A stretch of DNA of 64,000 nucleotides from Candidatus Nealsonbacteria bacterium (GCA_026396115.1 JAPLXL010000005.1:137316-201315); one strand, 5' to 3'. Positions 20,186-47,354 are shown, counted from the first letter of the stretch. Numbers and translations are program-made. The notes: generated by a model from the letters alone, not told the origin.

Positions 20186-20224
20186 GGAGGGAAGACTGAA
20201 TTCAGTTTCCCCTCCTTATTTTTT
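20186..20224. terminator. bidirectional intrinsic terminator between the convergent ORF 19775-20173 and miaB-miaA
   Basis: Long hairpin ggagggaagACTGAATTCAGTttcccctcc flanked by an A-run (5') and a T-run (3'). Confidence 0.5.
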
Positions 20225-31662: not shown

Positions 31663-32076
31663 ATGTTAGTAATCAGATTTTTAAGAACCGGCAAAAAAAA
31701 TCAACCATCATTTAAGCTCGTGGTTGTTGAAAAAACCAGATCGTCAACTTCCGGCCGCTTTGTGGAACAGGTTGGCTTTTATAATCCTTTGACAAAAGAA
31801 AAAGTTTTCAAGGGAGATAGAATTAAATATTGGCTTTCGGTCGGGGCTCAACCTTCAAATACGGTTTATAATTTATTGGTTTCAGAGAAAATTGTCTTGG
31901 GCAAAAAAATTCCAAAACACAAAAAATCAAAAAAGGAAGTCCCCGGAGGAGAACAAGTTCCCCACGAGGCAAACAATTCTCCTACGGGGCAGGCAAAAAA
32001 GGAAAAAGAGAAAACTACCCCGAAAATCCCAATCCAAGAAAAGCCGAAAGAAGAAAAGGTCAAAAATCCAGAATAA
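31663..32076 (+). CDS. rpsP: 30S ribosomal protein S16 with a Lys/Glu-rich C-terminal extension
   Basis: MLVIRFLRTGKKNQPSFKLVVVEKTRSSTSGRFVEQVGFYNP. Confidence 0.85.
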   Translation: MLVIRFLRTGKKNQPSFKLVVVEKTRSSTSGRFVEQVGFYNPLTKEKVFKGDRIKYWLSVGAQPSNTVYNLLVSEKIVLGKKIPKHKKSKKEVPGGEQVPHEANNSPTGQAKKEKEKTTPKIPIQEKPKEEKVKNPE

Positions 32077-32078
32077 AA

Positions 32079-32107
32079 TAATGGCAGCAGACTGCCATTA
32101 TTTTATT
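32079..32107 (+). terminator. intrinsic terminator after rpsP
   Basis: taatggcag-caga-ctgccatta hairpin followed by a T-rich run. Confidence 0.55.
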
Positions 32108-32156
32108 ATCTTTAGTTGAGTTTATCGAACTGTTGACTACTATTTCGATTCATTTC

Positions 32157-32215
32157 TTGTTATAATATTATAACAAACCAAAGGTTTGGCATATCAAAAT
32201 TTATTTTGCTATAAT
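32157..32215 (+). promoter_or_regulatory. 20-bp perfect palindrome TTGTTATAATATTATAACAA plus an extended -10 (TGcTATAAT) just upstream of the surface-protein gene cluster
   Basis: Palindrome at 32157-32176 (perfect match for all 20 bp); TGnTATAAT at 32207-32215; ATG at 32223. Confidence 0.4.
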
Positions 32216-32222
32216 ACATATA

Positions 32223-34805
32223 ATGCAAAAGAAACTCACAAAATTTATTGTTATCTTTTGTTTATTTTTGCTTTTTCTGTTTCTCTCTTTAACTACCCAA
32301 GTCGCAGTGCAGGGTGAAGAAGAGAATTTATTCTCTTCGCCCGCTTTGGCTCAAGAAAGTAAATTAGAGGTTGAATATCCGGAAATCAAAGGAATAAAAC
32401 CGGAAACGGTGACAACCGAACTGCCGGAATATGTAAGATATGTCTTTAATTTTAGCATAATAATTGCGGGTTTAGTTCTTTTTGGAGCTTTAATTTACGG
32501 AGGAGTAAAATATTTAACCTCAACCGGCAACCTGCCTGCTCTGATAGACGCCAGAGAGCAAATTTTGGCAGCTTTTTTGGGAATAATAATTTTACTTTCT
32601 TCTTATATAATTTTAACCACTATTAATCCCCAGTTAATAGTTTTTAATCTTCCCGAACTTGAAAAAGCAGAAATATTATGTAGAAATGATGATGACTGCC
32701 TCGGAGATCTTATATGTATAGAAGAAAAATGTGTTGAAGCACCCTGCGAGAAAGACGAAGATTGTCCGGGTTTTCCGGACTATGTTTGCAAATTACCAGA
32801 GGGAGTCTGCGTTTATGAAGGAAAGACTTTGATTGTTTATGAAATTCCTTTAGGCCGAATAATTGACGAAGGAGTCTGGGAGGAAGATAGGACTAAAGAA
32901 ACGGAAGATTTAATTAAAGATTTTGAAAAATTTCTTAAAGAGGAAATAAAAGTAAATCCAACTTTTAATCAGATTGCTGATTTGAATAAATATTTAAAGA
33001 CCTTGACAGAGGAATGCCAATGCGGTAATTTGGATGCTTTTTGTACCAAACCCTGGGAATGGAGTATGTCGATTGGTTGCAGCGGAGATCCTTGTAAAGA
33101 AAAACTAGAGGGGACAATCGGAGGCATTGTAGTCGGTGAAAAAACCACCAGAGAAAAAATGGAAGATGTTTTGAAAATCAATGAAGAAAAGATGAAAAAA
33201 CTTTTGGAGTTTTTAGAGAAAATCAAAGAAAAGAAAACGGTCTTCGAAAATCAACTGAATAAATTCTCCAAAGGGTTGGAAGATGCAATGGATTGTCTAA
33301 AACAAAGTAGGGAGTTATACACTTTCAAGGAGCATTTAGCTAGGGTTCAATATTATGAAGATCTTGGCTGGAACGTAAAGATCGTACAGGGTATTTTAGA
33401 AGCAAAAGCGGACCCCTTTACTTTTTACTGTTCGGTTGGAGGACCAATAATGGATTATCCCTATTTGTCGGAAATAGAATTTTCTCCGGAAGAATTCGAA
33501 TCTGTCGAAATTCCGGAGAAACTAGAAAAGCCGGAACCAATAAGCTGTCCGATTGGGATTCCAATAAGTGTAATTTTAGAACAAAGTGGCGGATTAGGAG
33601 TGGCACTGATTAACAAAATGGATGGATTAATTTATTGGATAGACGAGATGAATAAAGAAATCAGAAATATGGCTGATTTCGTTTCTCAATGCAACGAGCA
33701 AAATTGCAAAATTAATTGCGCCTGTATCCCGAATCCTTGCTTTGGTAGTCTATTACCCTGGTGTTTGTTTTTTTCTCCTGCATCTCGCTGTCTTCAGGCA
33801 ATTGGTCAATGCAGCGGTGATCCCTGTCCTTACCCGGAAATTGGAGAAACCTCAGAAAAAATTAAAAAAAATGAAGATGAGATTTTTTTACTTTTAGAAG
33901 AAATAAAAGAAATCTTCCCCAAAGTCAATGAAATTGTGAAAGTAGGCACGGAAGATGCTCTAGACCTGAAAGACATAACCTGGGCAGTTGAATTCTGTTC
34001 CGGTCCTGTGACTGAAACAGAACCACCGACCTGGTTTATGTCAGATTGTTCAATGGCTCTGGGAAGTTATGGGCCGGGCGGTCAAGTAATCGGCGATTGT
34101 CATCCCTGGGATTTCTTTTGTTGTACTCAGTCAAAAGAAGCTTTGAGGGAGGTACCTTCTTTGCCTCCGACGCTTCGAAAACTGGGACCTCGTGTTGGCC
34201 CGGAAGGTCCGGAAGAACCCACGCCTTCAGAATTAGCTAAAAGTTCAATTCCGGCAATGTCTTCGCCGCCTCTCAAGACAGGCGAAGTTAGCTGTCTAAA
34301 ACAGAGCGATCCTCGTTGGGGAAACAAATTATTTGGTCCTTGCCCGCCAGGCGGTACTTATACTGACGCAGGTTGCGGACCTTCTTCTTTAGCAATGGCA
34401 ATTAGTTATTTTCAAAACAAAGAAATTCTTGTTGATACAATCGGGGAAAAAATTGTTGAAAAAGGTTTAAGAAATTGCGACAGCGGCTCAAGCCCTAGCA
34501 TAATGACAGTTATTCCGTCACTATATGGATTATCTTCATATGAAATTAAACCGTTTGCCTTTGAAAACTGGAAAGAAGAAGTAAAGAAATGCTTTGATGA
34601 AGGAGGGTTAATTACTGCTCTAATGGCTGGCCCCAGTAAGTTTACTGCAGGCAGCGGACATTTTATAGCGCTAACTGACATAACCGATGATTATGCTTAT
34701 ATTACGGTAAATGATTCATCCAAAAGAATCTGCCCCAGACAGGAGTTATTAAAAGATGTTTTTAAGTTCAAAAAACAACCGGGTATTTGGTGTATAAAAA
34801 AATGA
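32223..34805 (+). CDS. large secreted/membrane-anchored Cys-rich protein: signal peptide, VirB2/TrbC-like two-helix pilin-like domain, Cys-rich modules, C-terminal C39-like cysteine peptidase domain
   Basis: N-terminal signal peptide; TTELPEYVRYVFNFSIIIAGLVLFGALIYGGVKYLTSTGNLPALIDAREQILAAFLGIIILLSSYIILTTINPQL has two TM helices; the C-terminus carries ...DAGCGPSSLAMAISYF... and ...GSGHFIALTDITDD... (C39-type Cys/His motifs). A mini-element copy is inserted near the N-terminus. Confidence 0.5.
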   Translation: MQKKLTKFIVIFCLFLLFLFLSLTTQVAVQGEEENLFSSPALAQESKLEVEYPEIKGIKPETVTTELPEYVRYVFNFSIIIAGLVLFGALIYGGVKYLTSTGNLPALIDAREQILAAFLGIIILLSSYIILTTINPQLIVFNLPELEKAEILCRNDDDCLGDLICIEEKCVEAPCEKDEDCPGFPDYVCKLPEGVCVYEGKTLIVYEIPLGRIIDEGVWEEDRTKETEDLIKDFEKFLKEEIKVNPTFNQIADLNKYLKTLTEECQCGNLDAFCTKPWEWSMSIGCSGDPCKEKLEGTIGGIVVGEKTTREKMEDVLKINEEKMKKLLEFLEKIKEKKTVFENQLNKFSKGLEDAMDCLKQSRELYTFKEHLARVQYYEDLGWNVKIVQGILEAKADPFTFYCSVGGPIMDYPYLSEIEFSPEEFESVEIPEKLEKPEPISCPIGIPISVILEQSGGLGVALINKMDGLIYWIDEMNKEIRNMADFVSQCNEQNCKINCACIPNPCFGSLLPWCLFFSPASRCLQAIGQCSGDPCPYPEIGETSEKIKKNEDEIFLLLEEIKEIFPKVNEIVKVGTEDALDLKDITWAVEFCSGPVTETEPPTWFMSDCSMALGSYGPGGQVIGDCHPWDFFCCTQSKEALREVPSLPPTLRKLGPRVGPEGPEEPTPSELAKSSIPAMSSPPLKTGEVSCLKQSDPRWGNKLFGPCPPGGTYTDAGCGPSSLAMAISYFQNKEILVDTIGEKIVEKGLRNCDSGSSPSIMTVIPSLYGLSSYEIKPFAFENWKEEVKKCFDEGGLITALMAGPSKFTAGSGHFIALTDITDDYAYITVNDSSKRICPRQELLKDVFKFKKQPGIWCIKK
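32302..32350. repeat. mini-element copy at the N-terminus of the 860-aa surface protein
   Basis: gggtgaagaagagaatttattctcttcgcccgctttggc. Confidence 0.6.
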
Positions 34806-37687
34806 AAAAATATTTTTTGAAAAAAAAGATTATAATTCTCTTTTCAATAATAATAACGGTAGTTTTAATCGCCGGCCTTTTCATTGTTTTTGATTTTAAT
34901 TTAGAAAATTTAACAGTTAAAAAAGGCATCCAAATGACTAAAAATAAAGCCCGAATTTTTGCCCAAGAAATCTCTCTTTCTTTTATGCCTCGTTTTCCTC
35001 AAAGATTGATGTATTTAGCCGGAGAAATGACAATCCTTACCCAGAACCTGGTTAATTTTAACGAAAAATTGAATGAACTTACAGAAGAATGTGGTTGTCA
35101 ATATGCCGAATCGCAATGTCAACAGAGTAAAATCTTGGGAGTCCAAGTAGGATGCAAACCCGGAAAGATTAAAACTTTTAGCGACCCTTGCCCCCATAGA
35201 GAAGAGATTGAAGACAGGCAATTAGATATCCAGATGAAAATAGAACAATTTTCTTATTTACAAAAATTACTCAAAAAAGAAATGGAGGTAGGATTGGAAA
35301 AAGAATTAAAAACTTTAAGGCCGGAAGTGGCTGAAGAATTAAAAGATAATTTAAATAAACTTCTTGAGTTAAATCAAGACGCTATTCTTTCGGCCTCATC
35401 TACCTACCCTTTACCTCTTCAATGTACGGCTGACAAATGCCAAGCCCAATGTCAACAGGGATCCAGTTTCAGCCTGAAGGCTTGTCTCAATCCCGGTGAG
35501 CAAAAACCAATGGAAGCGATATTTGAAGCCGGAGTGGGTTTGAATGATTTAGAACTCGGCGAAATAGGAATTAAAAATATCAATTTAGGATTACCGGAAG
35601 AAATTGAATTAAAAGACCTGGCTGAACTTTCTTCATTCACTATTTCTTTGCCAAGCGTTAATATCACTTTTCCTGAAATTACAATTGCTGAGTTTCAAGC
35701 AGGAGCATCTCTCGATCTTTCCGGCCGACCTATTATCTTCAATCCACCTTCACCAACAATTCCTCAGCCACCCTTATTGGAGTTATCCTGTCCAAAATTG
35801 CCGCCCTATGAACCATCCACTTTTTCCCAAACTTCCTTAGCCCAAACAATTGGTGATTTTCCGTTTAGGACGTTAGGCTGTGGCTGTTCTCCTAGTTGGT
35901 CAATTACTGTGGAAGAAGAGTCCGTAGATTATGTTGACGTTGAGTGGTATTTTCAAACTTTTTCCTGGTTATCGGAAAAATGTCAGGAGTTGCCGGGAAT
36001 GGAAGACCAGGGAATTCCAACTGAGAAAATTGAAAAATGTTTTGACCAGGAAAATGTCCATTTGACTATTATTCAAGAATGCGATGATTTTTGGGCAAAT
36101 TATAACCCTGAATCTCCGCCGCCTATTCCGCCAATTTGCAATGCTCTGGGACCGTCTTCTTCGGCAACTCAAATACAACAAGAATGTCAAAATTTATTTG
36201 AACAAGAAGGAGAATCCGCTCCTTCAAATTGCAACCTAAGCGTTTTAAAAGAAAAATGCGAGCAATTAAAAGATGAAGGAATAGAAGAAACTCCTGAGCC
36301 TTGTAAGTTTTTACCCCTCTTTACCGGTCAATTTCCTTCTCCGGACTCTTATGAATTTTCCGGTTCGCCCCAGTTTTCCCCAACCCAAACAATTGCCGAT
36401 TTTCCGCTTAGTATGTTGGGCTGTCCTGCATCTCCTCCCACTCTTCCCAAAATTATTTTTCCTAAAATAGTCATTCCTGATATTAAACTACCACATATTA
36501 AGTTTTGGCCCTTTTTTGATATTAAACTGCCTAATTTTATTTTTGAAGATTTGATTCTGCCTGATTTAGACCTCTGCGATTTAGATAACTGCGCCAATAT
36601 CTTTCCTGATTTAAAATTTCAATTGCCGTATCTTGATATACCGCAAATTATTGTTCCTTCCATTCAACTGCCGGACATCAGCGCTAATATTTCGGGCGTA
36701 GGAGTGATTAAAGTTCCTTTGCCGAGAGTTGAACTTAGCGAAATTGAATATCCGGTTATTTCTTTAAATTTTCTTCAATCATTTAATTTAGGCAATCTTA
36801 TTACTCCGGAATTAGAACTGCCAAGAATTGAATTGCCCCGGCCAAAAGTTCATTTTGCCTTCAAAAGTCTTAATATTGATTTCTTCAATATTCTTTTAGG
36901 ATTGATTGGTCAATTTCTTCCTATTCCATCGGGATGTATCGGCTTTGATTTCCATATAATTCCTCTCTCGATTATTTTTCCTGATTTTTATTTTACCTGG
37001 CCTGCTTTTCCGAGAATTCCAGAAATCCCTTTTTGCGAGAACATAAATGACTTTTGTCAAAAGGCGAAAACCAATTTGAAAGAAGTAACCGATAAAGTCA
37101 AAGAAATAGAAAACCTAGCCAATACAACTTTCCAAAATGAAATTCAGTCAAAACTTAATCTGGCGGCTCAAGAAATAAATCAAACATTAGCCAATGCTAT
37201 TGGAGAACAACTAAATCAGCGCAGCCAAACAATAATAGACGAGATAGAAAAACATATTCAGCTTAACGCAAAAATAGAAGCCGGGGTTTTGAAAATCCCA
37301 CCGCTTTCGATTGAAATGCCAGATATAGAAGTTCCGACTATTTCCTTGTCTGAGATAACCGGTTTGCCGGATAAAATCACTATTCCCTGGCCAGAGAGCT
37401 TGAAAAAAATTATTCTTGAAAAAGAAATAACCTATAAACTCCCGACTATATCTTTAGATAAGCTCAGTTATGAGAAAGAGATTTCAATTAAAATCCCCGG
37501 TTTTCAGATGCCTTCGCTAACAGTTACTTTAGGCTCGCTTCTTAATTATCCTTCTTGTGAAAGCCAGCCGCCTTCTGGCAGCAATCCTTGTCCTACCGGT
37601 CAAATTCAGCAGAAGCTTGAGGAGATTAAACAAGTTAAAGGTGAAATAGAAGAAACTTCCAAAAAGATAATTAATATATTAGAATGA
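34802..37687 (+). CDS. giant N-terminally anchored Cys-rich protein sharing a TEEC-x-C...GC-x-G...DPC module with the preceding protein; degenerate LP-rich repeats in the distal half
   Basis: One N-terminal TM helix; NEKLNELTEECGCQYAESQCQ...GCKPG...DPCP parallels LTEECQCGNLDAFC...GCSGDPC of the upstream gene; the start overlaps the upstream stop (ATGA). Confidence 0.45.
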   Translation: MKKYFLKKKIIILFSIIITVVLIAGLFIVFDFNLENLTVKKGIQMTKNKARIFAQEISLSFMPRFPQRLMYLAGEMTILTQNLVNFNEKLNELTEECGCQYAESQCQQSKILGVQVGCKPGKIKTFSDPCPHREEIEDRQLDIQMKIEQFSYLQKLLKKEMEVGLEKELKTLRPEVAEELKDNLNKLLELNQDAILSASSTYPLPLQCTADKCQAQCQQGSSFSLKACLNPGEQKPMEAIFEAGVGLNDLELGEIGIKNINLGLPEEIELKDLAELSSFTISLPSVNITFPEITIAEFQAGASLDLSGRPIIFNPPSPTIPQPPLLELSCPKLPPYEPSTFSQTSLAQTIGDFPFRTLGCGCSPSWSITVEEESVDYVDVEWYFQTFSWLSEKCQELPGMEDQGIPTEKIEKCFDQENVHLTIIQECDDFWANYNPESPPPIPPICNALGPSSSATQIQQECQNLFEQEGESAPSNCNLSVLKEKCEQLKDEGIEETPEPCKFLPLFTGQFPSPDSYEFSGSPQFSPTQTIADFPLSMLGCPASPPTLPKIIFPKIVIPDIKLPHIKFWPFFDIKLPNFIFEDLILPDLDLCDLDNCANIFPDLKFQLPYLDIPQIIVPSIQLPDISANISGVGVIKVPLPRVELSEIEYPVISLNFLQSFNLGNLITPELELPRIELPRPKVHFAFKSLNIDFFNILLGLIGQFLPIPSGCIGFDFHIIPLSIIFPDFYFTWPAFPRIPEIPFCENINDFCQKAKTNLKEVTDKVKEIENLANTTFQNEIQSKLNLAAQEINQTLANAIGEQLNQRSQTIIDEIEKHIQLNAKIEAGVLKIPPLSIEMPDIEVPTISLSEITGLPDKITIPWPESLKKIILEKEITYKLPTISLDKLSYEKEISIKIPGFQMPSLTVTLGSLLNYPSCESQPPSGSNPCPTGQIQQKLEEIKQVKGEIEETSKKIINILE

Positions 37688-37702
37688 AATAATAAAAAAC
37701 TT

Positions 37703-39049
37703 ATGCAGAGAAAGACAACTTTGAATAAATATTTTTTTCTCATCCTAATTTTATTTTTATTTTTTTTGTTAAGTGATTTTGCTTTGGCTAAGAAATGTAC
37801 AACCGATGCTGAGTGCGCGCCGGCAAGATGTGTAGATGAAAAATGTGTTAAGACCTTAGAGATTGTTTATCCTAAGGTTCCCGGAGCTACTGCCACTCCA
37901 GAAACCGTTGCCACCGGCTTGCCAGAATACGTCAATTATATTTTCCGATTTGCGGTTATTGTCATTGGCTTAATAATTTTTGGTGTTTTGGTTTACAACG
38001 GCGTTATTTATTTGACCTCAGTCGGGGATCCATCCAAAATGACTGATGCCAGAACCGGAATTTTTGCCGGTTTTTTAGGGGCAATTATTTTGCTTTCAGC
38101 TTATCTCATCTTTAATACTATTAATCCTCAATTAACTATTTTAAAAATGGAAGAAGTCCCTGCTCTCAAACCCATCGTCTTCCCAGGCATTTATATTTGC
38201 GCCAATAAGGTAGATGATATAGAAGGAGTTCTCAATAAATACCTTCAAGGTGATCGAGTTGAAGCTGTCGAAGAGCTCCGAAAAATAATAGAGGATAAAA
38301 TCTGCCTAAAAGCTAATTTCTCCGGCAATTTCGAGAATTTTGAAGTGAGTGCGAATAACAATACTTTTTTTGTCATTCCAGCTGAAGAGTCAAAATATGA
38401 TTCCGATAAAGCAACAACCACAACTAAATATGTGTCTAAATATGGATTAATTTTACACGAAAAAGATAATTTTAGCGGCAGATGTTTTCTCGCATTCCAA
38501 GAAAATGATAAAATATATGCATCATCATCTAAAGAAGAATTTAAGCCAATTTCCGGAAATTTTGATAAGTTACCCTCAGATTTCAAAGCCAGATCATTTA
38601 CTCTTTTTAAAGAACCTGACCCTGAACCGGCTCCTGCTGCCCAAGGAGTAATCTTATATAATTGTCTTAGTTATGACCAAACGGGGTGCGCAAAAGATGT
38701 TACGCTTAAAGAAGCTCCTTTCAATACAGGAGGCGCTGATATGAGACAGGTTACGAAAAGTGGACTGGGAGAATTAGCCCAAAATACCCGTTCAGTTAAA
38801 ATTGATCCCAAAGGTTCTTTCTTGGCTCTCCTTTATGAGAAGGACGATTTTGAAGGTAAATGTGAAGTAATTTCTAGCAATGTTGTTGACCTTACCCAAC
38901 ATCCTATTGGTCGTTGTCCGACTGACCTTGCGGGAGCTGGCTGCAATGTTATAGGAATTTGGATTTATAGTCTAGGAGGTCTGCTATCCAACCCTTATTG
39001 TCAGCCCTGTATTCAATCAATGACTGTAATTAAGGGACTAAGACTCTAA
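37703..39049 (+). CDS. secreted protein with a second copy of the VirB2/TrbC-like two-helix domain and a Cys-knot-like N-terminus
   Basis: Signal peptide; CTTDAECAPARCVDEKC; TVATGLPEYVNYIFRFAVIVIGLIIFGVLVYNGVIYLTSVGDPSKMTDARTGIFAGFLGAIILLSAYLIFNTINPQL is paralogous to the domain in the 32223 gene. Confidence 0.45.
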   Translation: MQRKTTLNKYFFLILILFLFFLLSDFALAKKCTTDAECAPARCVDEKCVKTLEIVYPKVPGATATPETVATGLPEYVNYIFRFAVIVIGLIIFGVLVYNGVIYLTSVGDPSKMTDARTGIFAGFLGAIILLSAYLIFNTINPQLTILKMEEVPALKPIVFPGIYICANKVDDIEGVLNKYLQGDRVEAVEELRKIIEDKICLKANFSGNFENFEVSANNNTFFVIPAEESKYDSDKATTTTKYVSKYGLILHEKDNFSGRCFLAFQENDKIYASSSKEEFKPISGNFDKLPSDFKARSFTLFKEPDPEPAPAAQGVILYNCLSYDQTGCAKDVTLKEAPFNTGGADMRQVTKSGLGELAQNTRSVKIDPKGSFLALLYEKDDFEGKCEVISSNVVDLTQHPIGRCPTDLAGAGCNVIGIWIYSLGGLLSNPYCQPCIQSMTVIKGLRL

Positions 39050-39054
39050 TTAAG

Positions 39055-40548
39055 ATGAAAAAAAATTATTTTTATCTCCTAATTTTAACTCTTCTTTTTC
39101 TTCTTTTTCCTTTGCCAACTTTTGCCCAATGGACATTCATCCGGGATGCTCTTTTGTTTCTTCCCACCTTGGCAATTGCTGCTATTTTGGCTTTTGTTAT
39201 TTTTCTTAGCGGAGGAATTACTTGGTTAGTGGGTGCAATTCTTAATTGGGTAATCAGCCCCGGGTTTGTCAGTTTAAGTTATACCAGAATTGATGGCCCA
39301 AATCCCAATCCAATAATTGGAATGGGATTAAACATTACCCAAAGTTTTGTTAATTTGGCTCTGGTGGTTATTTTGGTTGTTATTGCTCTTTCCATTGCCC
39401 TGCGATTGGGTGAATACGGCAGTAAAAAAATCTTTGCCAAGCTGCTTATTATTGCCTTATTGGTTAACTTTGCTCCGGTTCTTGTTGGCTTAATAGTTGA
39501 TGCTTCAAATATTGTCATGAACTATTTTTTAAATGCAATTACAGAAGGAGCAATGGATATTGGTTCTCAGGTTTCAGATTTTAGCGCTGGCATTGCGAAA
39601 GTTATTGGGGGGGCTGGCGGCAACATTATGAGCAGATTGGGATTAGTGATGCAGGGGATTACCCAGATTATAGTCAACCTGTCCATGGCTTTTGCTTTTT
39701 TACTTTTTGCCGCTCTTTTCTTGATGAGATATGTAGTCATCTGGACTTTAACTATTTTATCTCCCCTGGCTTTTGTTGCTTGGATTTTACCCGGCACTAA
39801 AAAGCTTTGGAATATGTGGTGGAATCAGCTTATTCAATGGTCAATTATTGGTATTCCCATTGCCTTTTTTCTCTATTTAGGTCTCAATAGTTTTTCCTAT
39901 CTTAGGTCTGCTTTCGTTAGCAATCTTGAAATGCCGGGCATGGAACCGGCAACTGTTGGTTTTTTAAACGAAATTTTCCCTTTTTTCGTTATCATTGTCT
40001 TCCTTATTTTAGGCTTTGCCATCGGTCTTCAAACCGGAGCAATGGGAACTAAGGCAGTGATTAAAGGATTTCAAGCCGCTAATAAAACAGCTCAAAAAAC
40101 AACATTAAAAGCCATCGGACGCGGAACAGCGGCAGTCGGAATGGCAGCCGGAGGAGCGGCAGCCGTAAGTGCTGTTGGAAAGATGCAGAGAACATATACA
40201 GCTGGAAGAGCAAAAGGCCTTTCACCGATAAAAGCGACGGGTGAAGCGGTAAAAAGACAGTGGCAAAGAAGAACGTGGCCGGCAATAAAACAGACGGGGC
40301 AAGTGATAAAAACAACATTAACAACAAAAGCAGGAGCAAAAGCAGGAGCAAAAGCAGGATGGTCTAAGGGGGTGGCTGCCGGAAAAGGAACTTGGTCTGC
40401 TGTTAAGGATATTGCCAAACAAACAGCAATCGCAGGAGCAGTCGCAGGGGGAATAATGAAGAAAAAATCACCAACTCATTGTCCATCTTGTGGAGGCGCT
40501 GCTCCGGCCGGAGCAAGTTTCTGCCCTCATTGCGGAGCTAATTTTTAA
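39055..40548 (+). CDS. polytopic membrane protein (VirB6/TrbL-like topology) with a Lys/Ala-rich tandem-repeat tail and a C-terminal CxxC...CxxC zinc ribbon
   Basis: Signal-like N-terminus plus at least six hydrophobic helices; tail KAGAKAGAKAG is encoded by a 3x9-bp tandem repeat at 40327-40358; ends HCPSCGG...FCPHCGANF. Confidence 0.4.
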   Translation: MKKNYFYLLILTLLFLLFPLPTFAQWTFIRDALLFLPTLAIAAILAFVIFLSGGITWLVGAILNWVISPGFVSLSYTRIDGPNPNPIIGMGLNITQSFVNLALVVILVVIALSIALRLGEYGSKKIFAKLLIIALLVNFAPVLVGLIVDASNIVMNYFLNAITEGAMDIGSQVSDFSAGIAKVIGGAGGNIMSRLGLVMQGITQIIVNLSMAFAFLLFAALFLMRYVVIWTLTILSPLAFVAWILPGTKKLWNMWWNQLIQWSIIGIPIAFFLYLGLNSFSYLRSAFVSNLEMPGMEPATVGFLNEIFPFFVIIVFLILGFAIGLQTGAMGTKAVIKGFQAANKTAQKTTLKAIGRGTAAVGMAAGGAAAVSAVGKMQRTYTAGRAKGLSPIKATGEAVKRQWQRRTWPAIKQTGQVIKTTLTTKAGAKAGAKAGWSKGVAAGKGTWSAVKDIAKQTAIAGAVAGGIMKKKSPTHCPSCGGAAPAGASFCPHCGANF

Positions 40549-40566
40549 AACTTCGTAAAATTATTT

Positions 40567-41043
40567 ATGTCAGAAGAATTTGAAATTCAAAAACTAAAAA
40601 GCGAATACCCGGAATTTTTTGAGCAGGTTTCTCCTGAATTTTTGGAGTTTATTTTTTCTGAAGAAACCTCTTCTAAAATTGCCGAGATTTGTTTGGAAAA
40701 CGGAATAGAAGACGAAGAAAAAATTGAAAAAATTGCTTACCGGGTTACCTTGGCTCTGTTAGAGCAAGTACCAAAAGAAAACTTAACTGAAGTCCTTGAA
40801 AAAGGAGTTGAAATAGATTTTGAAACCGCCGAAAAAATCTCTATTGAGATTAAACAGCTTATCTTTTCACAAATTCCAGAAACTCAACCAAAAGAAATTC
40901 AAAAAGAAGAGGATCAAATAGAAGAAGATGAGATAGAAGAAGATGAACTAACTCAACCGGAAAAACCGTCTCCTCCGGTGACGGAAAAAGAAGAACCTGA
41001 AAAGCCCTCAAAAAAAGATGTTTACCGAGAGCCTGTTGGATAA
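40567..41043 (+). CDS. acidic (Glu/Asp-rich) hypothetical protein
   Basis: ORF only; C-terminal EEDQIEEDEIEEDELTQPEKPSPP. Confidence 0.3.
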   Translation: MSEEFEIQKLKSEYPEFFEQVSPEFLEFIFSEETSSKIAEICLENGIEDEEKIEKIAYRVTLALLEQVPKENLTEVLEKGVEIDFETAEKISIEIKQLIFSQIPETQPKEIQKEEDQIEEDEIEEDELTQPEKPSPPVTEKEEPEKPSKKDVYREPVG

Positions 41044-41088
41044 ATAAAAAGGGAATGACTACTGTCATTCCCTCTAAAAAGCAAACAA

Positions 41089-42258
41089 CTACTTCTTTTT
41101 CTTTTTATGCCTCTTTCTCTGTTTTTTTAGTGTTTCTAGGGCTTCTCGAGCACTTTTCATTACTCTTTCTGTCTCTGGGCTTAATGGTTTTTCTGCATTT
41201 ACTTCTTCTTCTTTTGGTTCTTGTTCTGATTCACCACCCGGTATCCTCTTCCAAGCTCCGATTAGATTAAGAAAAGCTCCTTCCATTCCAGTTGCCCCAG
41301 GCGTTTCAATCCTAAGGTAAGATCTTTGTTCCATTGAAAGTTTTGTCATTGTATTGTCTACAATGGGTTGATGTTTTTGGTAGAAAACTTGGGGATCCGC
41401 CCTGAACTCTGCCTGGACCTCTTCCTCTTTTCTTCCTTCGGCTCTCGTCACCGCTAAAATCACAGTTCCCATTATTTCCTCAGCTCTACCAGCTGCCCTC
41501 ATCTCCTGTTCTTTTTTAGCAGCTCCTGCTTTCTGATATTCCGGTGATAATCCAATGCTTTTAATGTCTATTCCTTGTTTCGCAATTTGCAGCCCCCATT
41601 TAGGAAGAGTTTCTTGAATTAATTTTTCGTCTTTTAACCCAACGATTCCTTCCCCTCCTTCCCAGAGAGTTTCACTTTTACCTTTCAAAGCGATAAATTC
41701 ATCTACTGTCAACATGCTAACTCTCGCCCTCATAAGAGCGTCTATTCTGGCAAGGACATCTTCCAGAGGAGTCGGAGGAGCAATAAAGAGAAACAGAAAA
41801 GGATTCAATATCCGCATCGTTATCAATATCTCAATATCCAGCGGAATTCGTTCTGGAGGTAGGGTCTCTACCTTAAAAATTTTTGTCCAGTAAACCGCTG
41901 GTTTCAACATTACATGTCTAAGCTCTTCATCGTGAAACTGTGGTTTCTCAATTTTCTCTCCTACTTCCTCTACCCGGCGTAGATCGGTCCATCTTAAAGG
42001 ATATTTATAGATTTTATAAAAGGGCCATAAATAAACATACAAGCCACCAAAAATTTGACCATAAAGCTTACTTTCTTTTTTTTTCTTCTTCTCTTTTTTC
42101 CTCCAAATATTCCATTCAACATCCATCCAATGATTTTCCCATTGGAAGATAATTTTATAGAAAGCGCCCGCCTTCATCAGCGCCTGGGCTGTCCCTTCTT
42201 TTACAATAGTGAACCTGACAAACAAAAAAAATACTCCTAATAATATTAACCATTCCAT
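41089..42258 (-). CDS. SPFH/band-7-like membrane protein with a poly-Lys segment and basic C-terminus
   Basis: N-terminal TM then IVKEG...; later VETLPPERIPLDIEILITMRILNP and WGLQIAKQGIDIKSIGLSPEYQKAGAAKKEQE resemble SPFH core motifs. The family assignment is tentative. Confidence 0.35.
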   Translation of the reverse strand: MEWLILLGVFFLFVRFTIVKEGTAQALMKAGAFYKIIFQWENHWMDVEWNIWRKKEKKKKKESKLYGQIFGGLYVYLWPFYKIYKYPLRWTDLRRVEEVGEKIEKPQFHDEELRHVMLKPAVYWTKIFKVETLPPERIPLDIEILITMRILNPFLFLFIAPPTPLEDVLARIDALMRARVSMLTVDEFIALKGKSETLWEGGEGIVGLKDEKLIQETLPKWGLQIAKQGIDIKSIGLSPEYQKAGAAKKEQEMRAAGRAEEIMGTVILAVTRAEGRKEEEVQAEFRADPQVFYQKHQPIVDNTMTKLSMEQRSYLRIETPGATGMEGAFLNLIGAWKRIPGGESEQEPKEEEVNAEKPLSPETERVMKSAREALETLKKQRKRHKKKKK

Positions 42259-42438
42259 TTTCCTTTCACCTCCAATATAGTTTTTAAAGGGCTTTCCTCA
42301 AAGAAAACCCTCCTTTTCCTTGATAATTTACTTATATCACAATATAATATTTTTGTCAAATTTCTTGACATTGTGTTTTTCTTTGATTCTATTTGTGCTA
42401 AAATTAAAAAAGTAGTAAAATAATAAGTAGATAAAATT

Positions 42439-42747
42439 ATGCCCGTTGAAGCTGTTATCCCTAAGAAAAAAGGCGGTTGGTTTCAGAAAATTCCTACCGA
42501 AATTTTTTTATCGCCCGGCGGAATGATTTTGATTTTTTTTGCCCTTATAATTGAAATTATTGATTGGATTCCGCTTCCTTTTGTTGACCAAATATGGGAA
42601 CTACCATTGGAAATAGGTTTCATTGTTTTATTAGTTATAATAGTTAAAGATATCTCCTGGAAATCTTTAGTTATTCCTTTTATTATTGAACGCATTCCCA
42701 TAATAAGCGATATTGTTCCCACTTGGCTTATAAAAATGTTTGCCTGA
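42439..42747 (+). CDS. small two-TM membrane protein
   Basis: ORF with two hydrophobic helices. Confidence 0.3.
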   Translation: MPVEAVIPKKKGGWFQKIPTEIFLSPGGMILIFFALIIEIIDWIPLPFVDQIWELPLEIGFIVLLVIIVKDISWKSLVIPFIIERIPIISDIVPTWLIKMFA

Positions 42748-42768
42748 AGGATCGGACTTGACAAATTT

Positions 42769-42935
42769 TAAAAATAAATTACAATTTGACATAGTAGCAA
42801 TTAAGATGTGCCGCGTCTCCGAAAATCTGAAAAGGGAGATAGGCTGATCCGCCTCAGCTTTGAAGCTTCGGCGGGCAAGAAGGTCGGCGCTACTAGCAAA
42901 GATTAATTATCAGTAATTGTCTAAATCCAGAAAGA
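42769..42935 (+). promoter_or_regulatory. candidate promoter (TTGACA-16-TACAAT) and GC-rich structured leader upstream of khpA-trmD
   Basis: TTGACA at 42769-42774, TACAAT at 42791-42796; the leader contains the hairpin ccgcctcagctttgaagcttcggcgg, which is conspicuous in an AT-rich genome. Confidence 0.3.
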
Positions 42936-42938
42936 ACT

Positions 42939-43250
42939 ATGACTGAAACAAAAGGAAACGATAAAGAATTCCTTGAGTATTTAGTGAAGGCTTTAGTTGA
43001 TAACCCAGAAGATGTCAAAATCGACCGCAAGGTTGATGAAATGGGAGTTTTGCTTTCTTTGAAAGTGAACTCCGAAGATATGGGTCAGATTATCGGCAAA
43101 GCCGGTTCTACTGCCAGAGCAATTAGAGGTTTGGTTCGAATTGTCGGTCTTAAAAATCACGCCAGAGTGAATTTGAAGATCGAAGAACCGGAAGGTGGCA
43201 GAGAAACTCGAGAAATAAAAACAGAATCTATTGAAGATTTAAAGTTGTAA
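42939..43250 (+). CDS. khpA: KH-domain RNA-binding protein KhpA (UPF0109), copy 1, with a C-terminal extension
   Basis: LVKALVDNPEDVKIDRKVDEMGVLLSLKVNSEDMGQIIGKAGSTARAIRGLVRIVG; classic position between rpsP and trmD. Confidence 0.7.
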   Translation: MTETKGNDKEFLEYLVKALVDNPEDVKIDRKVDEMGVLLSLKVNSEDMGQIIGKAGSTARAIRGLVRIVGLKNHARVNLKIEEPEGGRETREIKTESIEDLKL

Positions 43251-43305
43251 ACTAAAAGTTTACAATTGCTCGAAGACCGTGCTATTATTGATAGTGCGGT
43301 TTTCG

Positions 43306-43379
43306 TTTACCGAGCTTTCACGGATGAAAGCGAAGGTGAAAATGAAGGCAAACTTCGCAGAAGGAAAACTTCATCGCCT
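43306..43379. repeat. mini-element copy immediately upstream of the trmD start codon
   Basis: tttaccgagctttcacggatgaaagcgaaggtgaaaatgaaggcaaacttcgcagaaggaaaacttcatcgcct. Confidence 0.6.
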
Positions 43380-44039
43380 ATGATAACATTTGACATTATT
43401 ACCATTTTTCCCAAGATTTTTGATTCTTATTTGAGAGAATCCTTTATAAAAAAAGCAATAGTCAAAGGCTTGCTTAAAATTAACATTCATAATTTAAGAG
43501 ATTGGGCAAAAGACCGCCACAAAACCGTTGATGATAGGCCATTTGGCGGCGGGTTGGGAATGGTCTTAAAGATTGAACCAATATATAAAGCCATAAAGGC
43601 TTTGAAAAAATCCAAAATTATTTTATTTACGCCGAGGGGAAAGAAATTTAATCAAAAAATGGCTTATCAGTTTTCCAAATTAAAGCAGATAATTATTATT
43701 TGCGGCCGTTATGAAGGAGTTGATGAAAGAGTGGCAAAAAAAATAGCCGATGTTGAGCTATCAATAGGCGATTATGATTTAATGGGCGGAGAGTTGCCGG
43801 CTATGGTGGTTATGGAGACAATAGCCAGATTAATCTCCGGAGTTCTTGGAAAGCCCGAATTATTAAAAGAAAGAATTACCAAAGAAAAGGGCTTTATTGA
43901 GTATCCTCAATATACCAGACCGGAGGTTTTTTCGCCCAAAAAAGGAGTAAAATGGCACGTGCCGAAAGTTTTGGTTTCCGGAAATCATAAAAAAATTGAA
44001 GAATGGCGGGAAAAACACCAAAAAATCATTGGGGAATAA
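43380..44039 (+). CDS. trmD: tRNA (guanine37-N1)-methyltransferase TrmD
   Basis: MITFDIITIFPKIFDSY start and SPOUT knot motifs. The longer frame starting at 43266 is open only because a mini-element copy lies immediately upstream. Confidence 0.85.
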   Translation: MITFDIITIFPKIFDSYLRESFIKKAIVKGLLKINIHNLRDWAKDRHKTVDDRPFGGGLGMVLKIEPIYKAIKALKKSKIILFTPRGKKFNQKMAYQFSKLKQIIIICGRYEGVDERVAKKIADVELSIGDYDLMGGELPAMVVMETIARLISGVLGKPELLKERITKEKGFIEYPQYTRPEVFSPKKGVKWHVPKVLVSGNHKKIEEWREKHQKIIGE

Positions 44040-44205: not shown

Positions 44206-44282
44206 ATAAAAATTTAAAATTAAAAATTAAAAAAGAAGAAAAGAAAAAGGAGGCAAAAGGGAAAAATATCGCCGAGGGACTT

Positions 44283-44311
44283 GACAAGGAAAAATGAATA
44301 TGCTATGATAT
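44283..44311 (+). promoter_or_regulatory. sigma70-like promoter (TTGACA-17-TATGAT) inside the tRNA-Tyr-adjacent island
   Basis: cttgacaaggaaaaatgaatatgctatgat. Confidence 0.35.
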
Positions 44312-44616
44312 AAATATTAATGAGAAATAGATAGTTCTTACAAATTAAATAAGATAAAAACAATTTCGAGGAGAGAGTCGCAATTGTTTTAAGTCAATTT
44401 TGTAAAAACCATTGGTTATTAAATTTAGTGACCAGAAATATTGTAAAAGGCGACTCTTCCAGAGCCGTCTTTTACTTTTTAAGCACCTTCAAATTAAATA
44501 TGGAGAAACCTCTTTTCTGCCACTGCATTTGGGAATATTGATATGTTCTCAGTTGCGGTGGCAGAAAAAAAGAAAGAAAAAAAATCCGCCCTCGGGCGGA
44601 AAAAGGAGGAAAAGAA

Positions 44617-45822
44617 ATGAAAAGGAAGATTGATATGCGATTTGGTGGAGGATACAATACAATTTTGTATTCTGCCAGGAGAAACTGTTTCTTTGCCTAT
44701 GAGCAGGAAGCAGTGGAAATTCATTCTAAATACGGGGGGAGGCAGTATTACTCCTCTCGAACTGGGTTGAGTGGTGCCGGTTTTCTCGAAGTTGATCCGA
44801 TCAACAATGATTTGATCCAGTTCGGGTATTACCGGACAGATGCGATGAGCGAACAGCGAATAGAGACAGTTCATACTGTCAATGGTTGTCCAGTATTTGG
44901 TTATGCCCCGATTATCTCGCATGGGGGAATTGACCAAAACGCACCGTTTGTACTCGCGGACGGTAGGAAAGTGGCGTTTGTCCATGCCTGCGATGTTCGT
45001 GATACCATTCTTAAATGGGAAGGGATTAAGGGCAAGGAAATCGAGTTGAACTATTATGATCACTACGGTCATAAAGAGAAACTCACTTTCCAGTTTTACA
45101 ATCCTGACCATTTCAGAGAAGTGAGGGCAAGCCGTTTCGTAGACTTACGAGGTCCTCGCCTAGAGGCAAAGGCAGTCCAACTCGAAGAGTTGGAAAGCGT
45201 CTTTGCTCGTCAGCTTTCCATTTCAAAAGAGATGGAAAGCGAGCGCTGGTTTCACATCAATGCCGATGGAATATTCGACATGATGTGGGAAGAGGACCCT
45301 CGTCAAATCGTCGGCGAAATCGTACCAGGATGGTACGGCGAAGGCAATGGTCTCTACTGGCGACGTGGTCGCAACGGCGTGAAAGTTTTCATGGAGATTA
45401 AAAGGTCTTCCTTGAATGGCGGGAAATATGTCGTTAATGGCAAAACTTCCGAGTTTATCGACTACGAGCAGAACTTTTCCATCTTGGAATGGTTCAGCAA
45501 GGACATTGATGCGTGGAAGAAACACTTCGTCGCGCAAGTGACGAAGAAAACACGCATGGACTACGTATATGCCTGCCAGTGTGTGGGCATAAATACTTAT
45601 GAGTTGATGAAACAACATCCGGATGTCCGAGTCTGTCTCCAAGATTCACTTGATGTTGGCAACTGTCGCCCGGCATCAGAGGAATTCGTCGAGCAATATA
45701 AAATCAAGCTCGATGAGGACGGATACACTGCCATAAAGACATTGCTAGAAAATCCGAACATCGACGAGATGTTGCGGAATTTCAACTTTCAGAAGACAAT
45801 CCACTACAAACTAGTGGATTAA
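44617..45822 (+). CDS. orphan hypothetical protein, compositionally foreign (clearly GC-richer than its surroundings), preceded by a GC hairpin and an AAGGAGG RBS
   Basis: 401-aa ORF with no motif I recognise; GC and codon usage differ from flanking housekeeping genes. Confidence 0.45.
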   Translation: MKRKIDMRFGGGYNTILYSARRNCFFAYEQEAVEIHSKYGGRQYYSSRTGLSGAGFLEVDPINNDLIQFGYYRTDAMSEQRIETVHTVNGCPVFGYAPIISHGGIDQNAPFVLADGRKVAFVHACDVRDTILKWEGIKGKEIELNYYDHYGHKEKLTFQFYNPDHFREVRASRFVDLRGPRLEAKAVQLEELESVFARQLSISKEMESERWFHINADGIFDMMWEEDPRQIVGEIVPGWYGEGNGLYWRRGRNGVKVFMEIKRSSLNGGKYVVNGKTSEFIDYEQNFSILEWFSKDIDAWKKHFVAQVTKKTRMDYVYACQCVGINTYELMKQHPDVRVCLQDSLDVGNCRPASEEFVEQYKIKLDEDGYTAIKTLLENPNIDEMLRNFNFQKTIHYKLVD

Positions 45823-46020
45823 TAATTAATCAAGGCGCTAACTGTCTTATTAGAGTTTTCGTAAGCCACCGAATGAAAATTTTAATGAAAAGTTAGTTGG
45901 TGAGATCTGTTATTAACAGATGGCCTTGACTCACCGTAAAACAAAAAGGATGCACTTATATGAAGGAGGTAAGAGTTTACTTATCAAAAGTTTACTCATT
46001 ATAATACTCTTCCTCCTTCA

Positions 46021-46062
46021 ATCTCCCAAGTTCAGAATTAAGATTCTGGATTTAGGAGATTG
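46021..46062 (+). repeat. 42-bp direct repeat, copy 1 (atcTcccaagttcagaattaagattctggatttaggagattg) with internal palindrome CAGAAT-TAAG-ATTCTG
   Basis: 41/42 identity with 46522-46563. Confidence 0.8.
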
Positions 46063-46108
46063 GAAAAAAGAAAGAAAAGAAATAAAAAGAAGAAAGGAGG
46101 TGTTTTAA

Positions 46109-46474
46109 GTGGAAAAGTTCGGTTTAAAAGCCGAAAAGTGGATAATATCTATTTTGAAAAGCAACGGGTTCTCAGTGATAAAATCGAGTGATATAGAGGA
46201 TCTAATTTTCAAAGTAGATTTCTGGATTCAGCACGATAATTACTGGATTCCAGTTCAGTTCTCGGTGGATAAGGAGGCGATTATTAGTTGGAAGGGGACT
46301 AATTCACTTCGACTGGGAATTGTTCCTATGTGGATAGATGGGAACAAGCTCAGGAGGGCTTTTGAAGATGAGGATGGGATAGAGTTAATTAAGGAGTTCT
46401 GGAATCGTGTAGAACAGATTATAGAAAATTGTTCTATAAAGCGATTTCAAACTCCAAACTGGAGTTGCGCTTAA
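46109..46474 (+). CDS. hypothetical protein carried on a cassette flanked by 42-bp direct repeats (GTG start, AAGGAGG RBS)
   Basis: ORF followed by the terminator-like hairpin ggggaactcaaattgcacacaatgagttcccc, then the second DR. Confidence 0.35.
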   Translation: MEKFGLKAEKWIISILKSNGFSVIKSSDIEDLIFKVDFWIQHDNYWIPVQFSVDKEAIISWKGTNSLRLGIVPMWIDGNKLRRAFEDEDGIELIKEFWNRVEQIIENCSIKRFQTPNWSCA

Positions 46475-46521
46475 CCAGATCACTAAAGGGGAACTCAAAT
46501 TGCACACAATGAGTTCCCCTA

Positions 46522-46563
46522 ATCCCCCAAGTTCAGAATTAAGATTCTGGATTTAGGAGATTG
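46522..46563 (+). repeat. 42-bp direct repeat, copy 2
   Basis: 41/42 identity with 46021-46062. Confidence 0.8.
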
Positions 46564-46938
46564 TTCCGAGTTTCAGAAAGATAAAATTTAACATAGAGGA
46601 AATAAAATGTTAGGATTTTAAATGGGTTTTTCTTCAGAGAGCTGTCAGTAAGTTCTAGCCCCTCCCCCCGGAGATGGCTACCAAGCTAGATCGGACATTA
46701 GTTCTGAAGACTGGCGAATTTCGCCAAAATCTCTCTCATTGTCTTCTAAAAATTGATGTTTGTATCATCCTAGCGCTTGCTGATAGCTTCTTGGAGAAAA
46801 ATATTGACATATTTAAAAAAAAGAGTAAAATAAAAGACAGCTTGGCAGAGCCAGGCAAAATAGTCGATTTTCTGGATTTCAGAAAGAGAGAATCGCAGAA
46901 TTAAAGGTCGGAAGAATTTTTAGTTTTATTAGTTTTAC

Positions 46939-47280
46939 TTGTTAAAATTAACACTTATGGCAAAAGCAACTATTGACAAAGAATTTCTTGAATACATTAT
47001 TAAAGGCCTAGTTGACTACCCCGATGATGTAAAAGTTGAAAGAAAAGTTGACGAGATGGGTGTTTTGCTCAGTTTGAAAGTCAACTCCGAAGATATGGGT
47101 CAGATTATCGGAAAGGAAGGTTCAACTGCTCGGGCAATAAGAAACCTTATTAGAATTGTAGGTCTCAAAAATCATGCCCGGGTTAACTTAAAGATTGAAG
47201 AACCAGAAGGCAGAGTAGCTGAAGTAAGAAAAGCTCCTGCCCGAAAGAAAGAAAGCGATTTGGATAGTTTAAATCTTTAA
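46939..47280 (+). CDS. khpA: KhpA paralog (copy 2) with a different C-terminal extension
   Basis: VDEMGVLLSLKVNSEDMGQIIGK is identical to copy 1, but the DNA carries many synonymous differences (an old duplicate or xenolog). Confidence 0.65.
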   Translation: MLKLTLMAKATIDKEFLEYIIKGLVDYPDDVKVERKVDEMGVLLSLKVNSEDMGQIIGKEGSTARAIRNLIRIVGLKNHARVNLKIEEPEGRVAEVRKAPARKKESDLDSLNL

Positions 47281-47354
47281 GTCTAAGGTTTACATCAAGA
47301 GAAAGCGGTGCTACTATGAAAAGGTGGTACCGTTTTTTCGTATCTCTATTATTA

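Follow-up and report, generated by a model that had tools for sequence, protein, structure and literature searches.

A probable envelope module of the Patescibacteria type IV secretion system, located between rpsP and khpA and apart from its ATPase genes in Candidatus Nealsonbacteria

Introduction

What does a block of seven genes lying between rpsP and khpA encode in a member of Candidatus Nealsonbacteria (Patescibacteria, Paceibacteria-type), and how did it come to lie there? The question arises from a stretch of DNA of 64,000 nucleotides (GCA_026396115.1 JAPLXL010000005.1:137316-201315), hereafter the window, in which the rpsP-khpA junction holds a 10.7-kb block of seven intact open reading frames (ORFs), designated A to G (32223-42747, Table 1). 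A preliminary description of this DNA had listed the same ORFs (proteins of 860, 966, 448 and 497 aa, an acidic protein, an SPFH-like protein and a small membrane protein), all of which we confirmed as intact, and regarded them as accessory cargo encoding a conjugation-like apparatus or a novel filament system. Our analysis largely bears out that reading of the proteins but places them in a system already known. In all likelihood, the block is the envelope module of the organism's chromosomal Patescibacteria-type type IV secretion system (T4SS), which was relocated and split from its motor ATPase.

Patescibacteria T4SSs have been described (PMC10633639, Wang et al. 2023) and reviewed (PMC12857230), and a survey (PMC12102498, Quinonero-Coronel et al. 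2025) reported their PF18895 VirB2-like pilins, VirB6, PrgI and TrsD, linkage to ksgA and dnaA, and a general absence of relaxases. A Saccharibacterium cannot grow epibiotically without its T4SS of this type, with pilin arrays, and a relaxase is usually missing from such systems (PMC10633639; PMC12102498; PMC12857230). The system is related to monoderm MPF-FATA conjugation machines, yet it has VirB2-like pilins. The block belongs to this described system (PMC10633639, PMC12102498, PMC12857230) and not to a novel filament. While the T4SS itself was already known, the fusions of pilin and hydrolase domains, an A-related protein of orphan fold (B) and the split location are new.

Results

In relatives, the block gene families form a ksgA-adjacent T4SS gene cluster

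A scan with the D family, using one genome per species, gave 80 related loci (designated by L and a number), which were searched by tblastn with the window proteins and with proteins from the loci themselves. The common layout was ksgA, A-B-C (in one sub-clade), D, F on the minus strand, E, a PrgI-family protein, a TrsD-like protein (~212 aa), VirB4 (~598 aa; P-loop_TraG, AAA_10), G, and genes for pilin-domain proteins. ksgA was the upstream neighbor in 63 of the 69 loci having at least 1.5 kb of upstream sequence. Homologs of E were detected by tblastn in 25/80 loci, in the cluster position and directly upstream of prgI, and those of F in 24/80, always on the strand opposite D, so that F is a recurrent neighbor of the VirB6-like gene. 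G was found directly after virB4 and before the pilin genes in related clusters (L020, L017, L004, L005 and L008). In L020 and L053, ORFs between E and G matched PrgI, the N-terminus of TraC_F_IV (weakly) and P-loop_TraG/AAA_10, indicating the presence of VirB4. The supposed foreign cargo is thus made up of the same families as the standard ksgA-adjacent T4SS cluster with prgI-trsD-virB4 of most related genomes, and the ancestral place of the block is beside ksgA, together with these three genes.

Pilin hairpins fused to large C-terminal domains

Protein A is composed of a signal peptide, a VirB2-like T4SS pilin hairpin (residues ~48-146), a Cys-rich helical/beta middle part (~150-650) and a C39-like cysteine peptidase domain (688-832), and protein C of a signal peptide, a T4SS pilin hairpin (residues 73-140) and a 300-aa C-terminal extracellular domain. 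The N-terminal two-helix domains of the two proteins shared 53% identity over 101 aa (E 4e-31). C matched the T4SS_pilin profile (PF18895) at 28.1 bits, over the cutoff of 26.6, and showed a weak match to NF045849 (E 0.0012); in A's family, 32 of the 46 members matched T4SS_pilin (E<=0.001). The two-helix domain is therefore a T4SS pilin domain, as had been suggested. PF04956 (TrbC/VirB2) matched neither A nor C, and one of the 46 members of A's family (E 6e-4). In the AlphaFold2 (AF2) model of A, helices 67-99 and 104-134 follow the signal peptide, and the middle domain had a per-residue confidence score (pLDDT) of 75-97.

The C39-like peptidase domain previously noted in this set of proteins is that of A, which scored 32.8 bits with Peptidase_C39_2 (PF13529; cutoff 24), the match covering profile positions 2-142 of 143. 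The sequence contains GCGPSSLAM (residues 716-724) and GHFIAL (residues 812-817), which, as in papain-like peptidases, would carry the putative catalytic dyad. The C-terminal domain varies within the family: 10 members end in C39_2, 2 in M23, 2 in NlpC/P60 and 1 in M74. M23, NlpC/P60 and M74 (murein endopeptidase) domains cut peptidoglycan peptides, and because they occupy the same position in homologs, the C39-like domain of A is most simply read as a putative peptidoglycan hydrolase on a pilin-hairpin anchor. Alternatively, it may process a leader peptide. Some 30 further members of the family end in another conserved domain (SxHYGG...D...H); its assignment as a LAS-type zinc peptidase was supported neither by Pfam nor by PDB sequences and stays a guess.

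Protein B is a Cys-rich extracytoplasmic protein with an N-terminal membrane anchor. Profile-profile comparison of B with A (97.3% probability, E 1.7e-11) spanned the membrane helix and a Cys-rich module, LTxxCxC...GDPCPxR, and B is a partial paralog of A. Its predicted model was confident (pLDDT 77). Searches with B gave no matches in Pfam, NCBIfam or PDB sequences and, in PHROGs, only a weak tape-measure match to its coiled coil. The B family is small, with 97 representatives at E<=1e-30 among 1.84 billion. Residues ~545-690 of B form a proline-rich beta repeat region (PKIIFPKIVIPDIKLP...), and the representative protein library includes giant proteins of 5000-6900 aa that contain 20-46 copies of it. 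Profile searches of PDB sequences with B, C, D, F and the alternative C-terminal domain of A's family yielded only low-complexity or chance matches.

A putative VirB6-like membrane protein and accessory proteins

Protein D has a basic Ala/Lys-rich tail and a C-terminal zinc ribbon ("extended VirB6"). Among its 333 homologs, many have precomputed PF19590 hits and one a PF04610 hit, and 8 of 28 aligned family members matched PF04610 (TrbL/VirB6), with a best E value of 4e-10. D is 35-65% identical to the family that contains these matches and, by transitivity of homology, would be a VirB6/TrbL-like polytopic membrane protein, in agreement with its initial assignment. The SPFH-like nature of F was also borne out: Band_7 (PF01145) matched residues 72-260 at 26.6 bits (cutoff 23.6). 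E and G had no matches to known families in Pfam, NCBIfam or PHROGs. G was 45-72% identical to six homologs, and 24 alignment columns were invariant.

The rpsP-khpA junction is a polymorphic hotspot

The genes upstream of the block are housekeeping genes (tRNA synthetases, gyrB, nusG, thymidylate metabolism, dnaE, rnhB, nusB, rnc and rpsP), and khpA, trmD, tRNAs, an HlyD/ABC/FtsX exporter, def and pcm follow downstream. Both junctions of the block recurred in independent assemblies of near-identical sister strains (ENA ERZ27247703, JGI 3300047201 and Logan SRR20698646) and were also present in L002, which rules out an assembly chimera; the arrangement is therefore no artefact.

Among the loci examined, the module lies between rpsP and khpA only in the window, L002 and L009. 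L002 has the order rpsP-A-B-C-D-F-E-G-khpA-trmD-HlyD-ABC-FtsX-def and is syntenic with the window from rpsP to pcm, and L009 has the order dnaE-rnhB-L32-nusB-rnc-rpsP-A-B-C-D..F. When metagenomes were scanned with trmD, 80 related loci were obtained, 42 of which contained both rpsP and khpA. The order dnaE-rnhB-L32-nusB-rnc-rpsP was upheld wherever the contig reached. The block was absent from all 42 loci (0/42), a result that agrees with the insertion-like site proposed in the preliminary description. The gap between rpsP and khpA was at most 1 kb in 28 of these loci and held 1-7.2 kb of other DNA in the remaining 14; in five of the latter, the genes sampled included those for PlsY, an alpha/beta hydrolase and an MBL-fold protein, as well as several small ORFs that matched nothing in Pfam. 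When five empty sites (L088, L117, L090, L104 and L085) were searched for remnants of the block by tblastx, only short matches were obtained (E 1.6e-5 or weaker), which we read as low-complexity.

In a neighbor-joining tree built from rpsP, khpA and trmD, two loci with empty sites, L088 and L117, paired with the window (84% bootstrap) and with L002 (77%), respectively. These four and L116 formed one clade (88%). The junction is therefore a polymorphic hotspot whose occupancy differs among close relatives, and at least two events are needed to account for it. A single origin followed by losses or recombinational exchange is favored because the left junctions of the window and L002 share one and the same terminator hairpin of rpsP (77% identity across window positions 32038-32107). 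The block was probably gained and lost via recombination through the conserved flanking genes, with no mobile-element integrase; Patescibacteria are naturally competent (PMC10633639).

Compared with the sister strain L163, the ratio of nonsynonymous to synonymous divergence (dN/dS) was 0.21 for A, 0.27 for B and 0.36 for C, and the ORFs were intact with no frameshifts, suggesting that the block genes are functional and under purifying selection. Divergence was uneven: amino-acid identity was 97% for A and B, 90% for C and 78% for the N-terminus of D, and dS was 0.06-0.07 for A and B, 0.15 for C and 0.22 for D. This unevenness hints at a mosaic history within the operon.

The strongest competitor, though an unlikely one, holds that the block supplements a complete T4SS kept at ksgA. 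The block would then provide alternative pilins, hydrolase and VirB6, would have been obtained by recombination at the hotspot, and would share one VirB4 with the resident system. This reading draws on the interleaved presence and absence of the block among the closest relatives, the unrelated cargo at this site in other genomes, the uneven dS of A/B, C and D relative to the sister strain, and the pilin gene arrays and VirB6 paralogs known in T4SS biology (PMC12102498). However, the block includes E, F and G, which look single-copy and normally flank virB4, and a moved cluster fits this better. The assemblies of L002 and L009 each had one D-like locus, a weak counterargument that comes from a pattern-limited search of metagenome-assembled genomes.

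In the rpsP-khpA gaps of several empty-site relatives (L085:7134-9150, L088:2985-4075 and the corresponding gaps of L082-L084, L090, L131, L137 and L147), 1-2 kb of DNA contained no ORFs of at least 100 aa, and blocks of ~100-130 nt were 79-89% identical across loci. These conserved blocks in empty-site relatives could be a non-coding RNA or a repeat.

Separation of the block from the ATPase genes

In the window and L002, prgI-trsD-virB4 are missing from their usual place between E/F and G. L009 also showed no prgI, trsD or virB4, its contig ending just past F. As in the preliminary description, no VirB4-type ATPase was detected in the 64-kb window: tblastn with two VirB4 queries from related loci found nothing, and PrgI and TrsD were likewise not found by tblastn. 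VirB4 is 64-78% identical among loci, and given this strong conservation its absence from the 64 kb is real. Pfam scans of window ORFs of at least 300 aa (dnaE excepted) revealed no VirB4, VirD4 or relaxase family. Separation of the cluster from virB4 as such is not rare. Among the 40 related loci with at least 9 kb of sequence downstream of D, VirB4 was inside the locus (10 kb) in 26 and not in the other 14, and the G-virB4-trsD unit of L004, L005 and L008 is found 8 kb downstream in inverted orientation.

The only secretion ATPase in the window is a T2SSE-family protein (59747-60979, 410 aa), whose gene is directly followed by that of a T2SSF platform protein (359 aa, to 62051), ~17 kb from the T4SS module; the pair appears to be the start of a type IV pilus or type II secretion system-like cluster. 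Should VirB4 have been lost, the block could represent a stand-alone surface system that works without an ATPase of its own, by Sec alone or with another motor such as this T2SSE protein. We give this little credence. It is true that prgI-trsD-virB4 are missing precisely where relatives hold them and that the genes are under apparent purifying selection, but VirB4 is also missing within 10 kb in the 14 loci mentioned above, is merely displaced by 8 kb in L004, L005 and L008 and is widespread in Patescibacteria (PMC12102498), and the T2SSE gene is paired with T2SSF in the style of a type IV pilus.

In L017:14845-18621 and L075:15080-18838, VirB4 matches were split into two pieces separated by ~2 kb, the break falling near residue 258-262, as might result from an intein, an intron or another insertion in the ATPase gene.

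Borders and regulatory signals

The weakest reading, that the block is an integrated conjugative or mobilizable element or its remnant inserted in the rpsP operon, would account for the T4SS-type genes, the insertion-like placement and the empty sites of relatives, but it is highly improbable: Pfam scans of the block and the large window ORFs detected no integrase, relaxase, coupling protein (VirD4/TcpA) or replication gene, neither direct nor inverted repeats were found at the block edges, the GC content of the block (0.33-0.42) is inside the range of the rest of the window (0.31-0.44), and the block genes are chromosomal core neighbors of ksgA across the clade. Without a relaxase or coupling protein, the conjugation-like function assumed earlier is also unlikely, and published work argues against conjugation in the clade.

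The block had been thought to extend to 42938. All seven genes lie in it as described, but its right edge is at ~42750, where the conserved khpA promoter and leader begin; homology to block-less relatives starts sharply at 42753-42758, 6-11 nt past the stop codon of G.

Table 1. Genes and signals of the block and its flanks in the window
Feature	Position	Strand	Remarks
rpsP	end at 32076		upstream flank of block
rpsP intrinsic terminator	32072-32107	+	16-pair stem, then T-run; left edge of block
20-bp perfect palindrome TTGTTATAATATTATAACAA	32157-32176	none	confirmed
Promoter-like site upstream of A	32186-32215	+	TTGGCA-18-TATAAT, TG-extended; 11/12 matches
A	32223-34805	+	860 aa, 38 Cys
B	34787-37687	+	966 aa from TTG, 28 Cys
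C	37703-39049	+	448 aa
D	39055-40548	+	497 aa, ~7-8 hydrophobic segments, pI 10.2
E	40567-41043	+	158 aa, pI 4.2, acidic, soluble
Hairpin terminator between convergent E and F	41048-41075	none	12-pair stem
F	41089-42258	-	389 aa, SPFH/Band 7, membrane-anchored
Promoter-like site upstream of G	42320-42348	+	TTGATA-17-TATAAT; 11/12 matches
G	42439-42747	+	102 aa, 2-3 hydrophobic segments; right end of block
khpA promoter and leader	42755-42938	+	TTGACA-16-TACAAT at 42758-42785; outside block
khpA	42939-43250		Pfam and NCBIfam support
trmD	43266-44039		Pfam and NCBIfam support

Genes A to E are closely packed on the plus strand and are followed by a hairpin, by F on the minus strand and by G with its promoter-like site. 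Upstream of A, the -10 box ends 7 nt before the ATG. In the window (32211-32225) and in most of the 11 relatives examined (L002-L014), a TATAAT/TAAAAT box precedes the start codon of A by 5-9 nt, whatever the upstream gene, and this spacing suggests that the A-B-C-D-E mRNA is probably leaderless. B likely starts at the ATG at 34802 (961 aa), forming an ATGA overlap with the stop codon of A.

The block had also been credited with its own promoter region marked by a palindrome. A promoter-like site is present, and the palindrome TTGTTATAATATTATAACAA is real; the 64 kb contain only one other perfect palindrome of 20 bp. The palindrome is not conserved, however: no counterpart was found upstream of A among 11 relatives, and it was rejected as a conserved operator; possibly, it is an operator or a chance occurrence.

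The 5' region of khpA is kept in ~60 related loci. It has the promoter TTGACA-N16/17-TAnAAT and a leader with AGTAGC at its 5' side, one or more variable hairpins, and GAAAGGTCG-nGCTACT at its 3' side, in which the outer hexamers could pair. A search of Rfam with the khpA 5' region and the block borders gave no RNA family matches. We regard the region as a candidate for a structured RNA leader of the operon khpA-trmD.

Other features of the window

Between tRNA-Tyr and tRNA-Thr/Trp (44207-47353), GC content is the highest of the neighborhood (0.43), and two ORFs of 401 and 121 aa had no significant Pfam or PHROG match. In L002, trmD is separated from the HlyD gene by only ~500 bp, and the region is therefore a second variable spot. 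A 684-aa ORF on the minus strand (20202-22256) contains UPF0004 and Radical_SAM (MiaB-like) domains and an IPP transferase (MiaA) domain, and seems to join in one protein two enzymes that act in succession in tRNA-A37 modification. Two more minus-strand ORFs, at 22898-24526 (542 aa) and 57076-58005 (309 aa), had no matches in Pfam or PHROGs.

Discussion

The assignment of the block to the chromosomal T4SS as its relocated envelope module draws on direct observations: the families to which the genes belong, the occurrence of these families next to virB4 in relatives, and where the locus lies and how its occupancy varies. Several points weigh against it. The T4SS_pilin score of A itself was 16.7 bits, below threshold, its C39 domain was modelled poorly by AF2, and the model had no fold match in the PDB, where B also lacked a specific structural relative. 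D of the window gave no TrbL match at E<=0.01, only zinc-ribbon models, and the D family profile did not match PrgH of pCF10. VirB4, PrgI and TrsD are absent from the window, so that coupling of the block to an ATPase is an assumption, and functional knowledge of these systems derives from Saccharimonadia, a different class.

With regard to assembly, wall cleavage and its enzymology, and host contact, we infer the following mechanism. A-B-C-D-E would be transcribed as one operon from the promoter upstream of A, and F and G from their own promoters. D, the VirB6-like protein, may form a membrane platform or channel. A and C would be exported by Sec and seated in the membrane by their pilin hairpins, which a distant VirB4/PrgI/TrsD motor could extract and polymerize; alternatively, A and C may stay anchored. 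In this way, their large C-terminal domains would be displayed outside the cell. The papain-like C39-type peptidase of A most likely cuts peptidoglycan peptides, and A might thereby do the job of VirB1/PrgK on the cell's own wall or attack the wall of a host. The C-terminal domain of C is a possible adhesin, and B, a disulfide-rich paralog of the stalk module of A, may be another structural component outside the cell. The membrane patch would be scaffolded by the SPFH protein F, while E and G may be conserved accessory parts.

More speculatively, the T4SS pilin hairpin might serve as a portable anchor and export handle for interchangeable wall-degrading (C39-like, M23, NlpC/P60, M74) and adhesin domains, the main job of the system being to cut the host wall and the module being exchanged among strains at the hotspot as a determinant of host range. 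We regard this extended proposal as tentative and rather doubtful.

These findings leave the classification of the system unchanged and turn vaguely defined "T4SS-like genes" into parts that can be tested. The Patescibacteria T4SS is essential for epibiotic growth in the sole species tested, and pilin domains fused to swappable peptidoglycan-hydrolase domains suggest that attacking or remodelling a wall is among its core activities. A conserved, previously unannotated set of partners consists of B, E, F (SPFH) and G. A surface module that is separable from the ATPase module and polymorphic at a core-gene junction is what would be expected of a host-specificity determinant.

Comparison with known systems

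The closest known system is the chromosomal T4SS of Patescibacteria, represented by Southlakia epibionticum (SEML1_0006-0019). Both have PF18895 pilins, are chromosomal, and are without a relaxase or coupling protein; its VirB6 homolog and wall hydrolase have putative counterparts in D and A, and the relatives of the block are linked to ksgA, PrgI, TrsD and a monoderm-type VirB4. Unlike that system, the block lies in the rpsP-khpA junction, away from virB4-prgI-trsD, and its "pilins" are fusion proteins of 448 and 860 aa instead of small pilin subunits. No mention of B, E, G or the SPFH protein F came up in the text searched in PMC10633639 and PMC12102498.

With the MPF-FATA T4SSs of Gram-positive bacteria (pCF10 Prg/Pcf, pIP501 Tra), the block shares a monoderm envelope without an outer-membrane core, a putative membrane-anchored multidomain wall hydrolase (a PrgK or TraG-like role) and a putative VirB6-like polytopic protein (compare PrgH). 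When families A, B, D, E, F and G were compared by hhalign with the pCF10 proteins PrgA-PcfC, nothing exceeded 20% probability. In contrast to the block, Gram-positive conjugative systems have no pilins and possess a relaxase and a coupling protein.

The two-helix hydrophobic hairpin after a signal peptide is also found in VirB2/TrbC pilins (PF04956) and in Mbov_0395 (NF045849) of the Mycoplasma integrative and conjugative element, but in the block it makes up only the N-terminal 100 aa of much larger proteins. Finally, the Rickettsiales T4SS resembles the system described here in that its genes are distributed over several chromosomal islands and its VirB6 proteins carry large hydrophilic extensions (PMC2653234, PMC12857230). 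The lineage and the envelope are unrelated, and whereas VirB6 genes are multiplied in Rickettsiales, a single one is present here, with a Lys/Ala-rich tail and a zinc ribbon.

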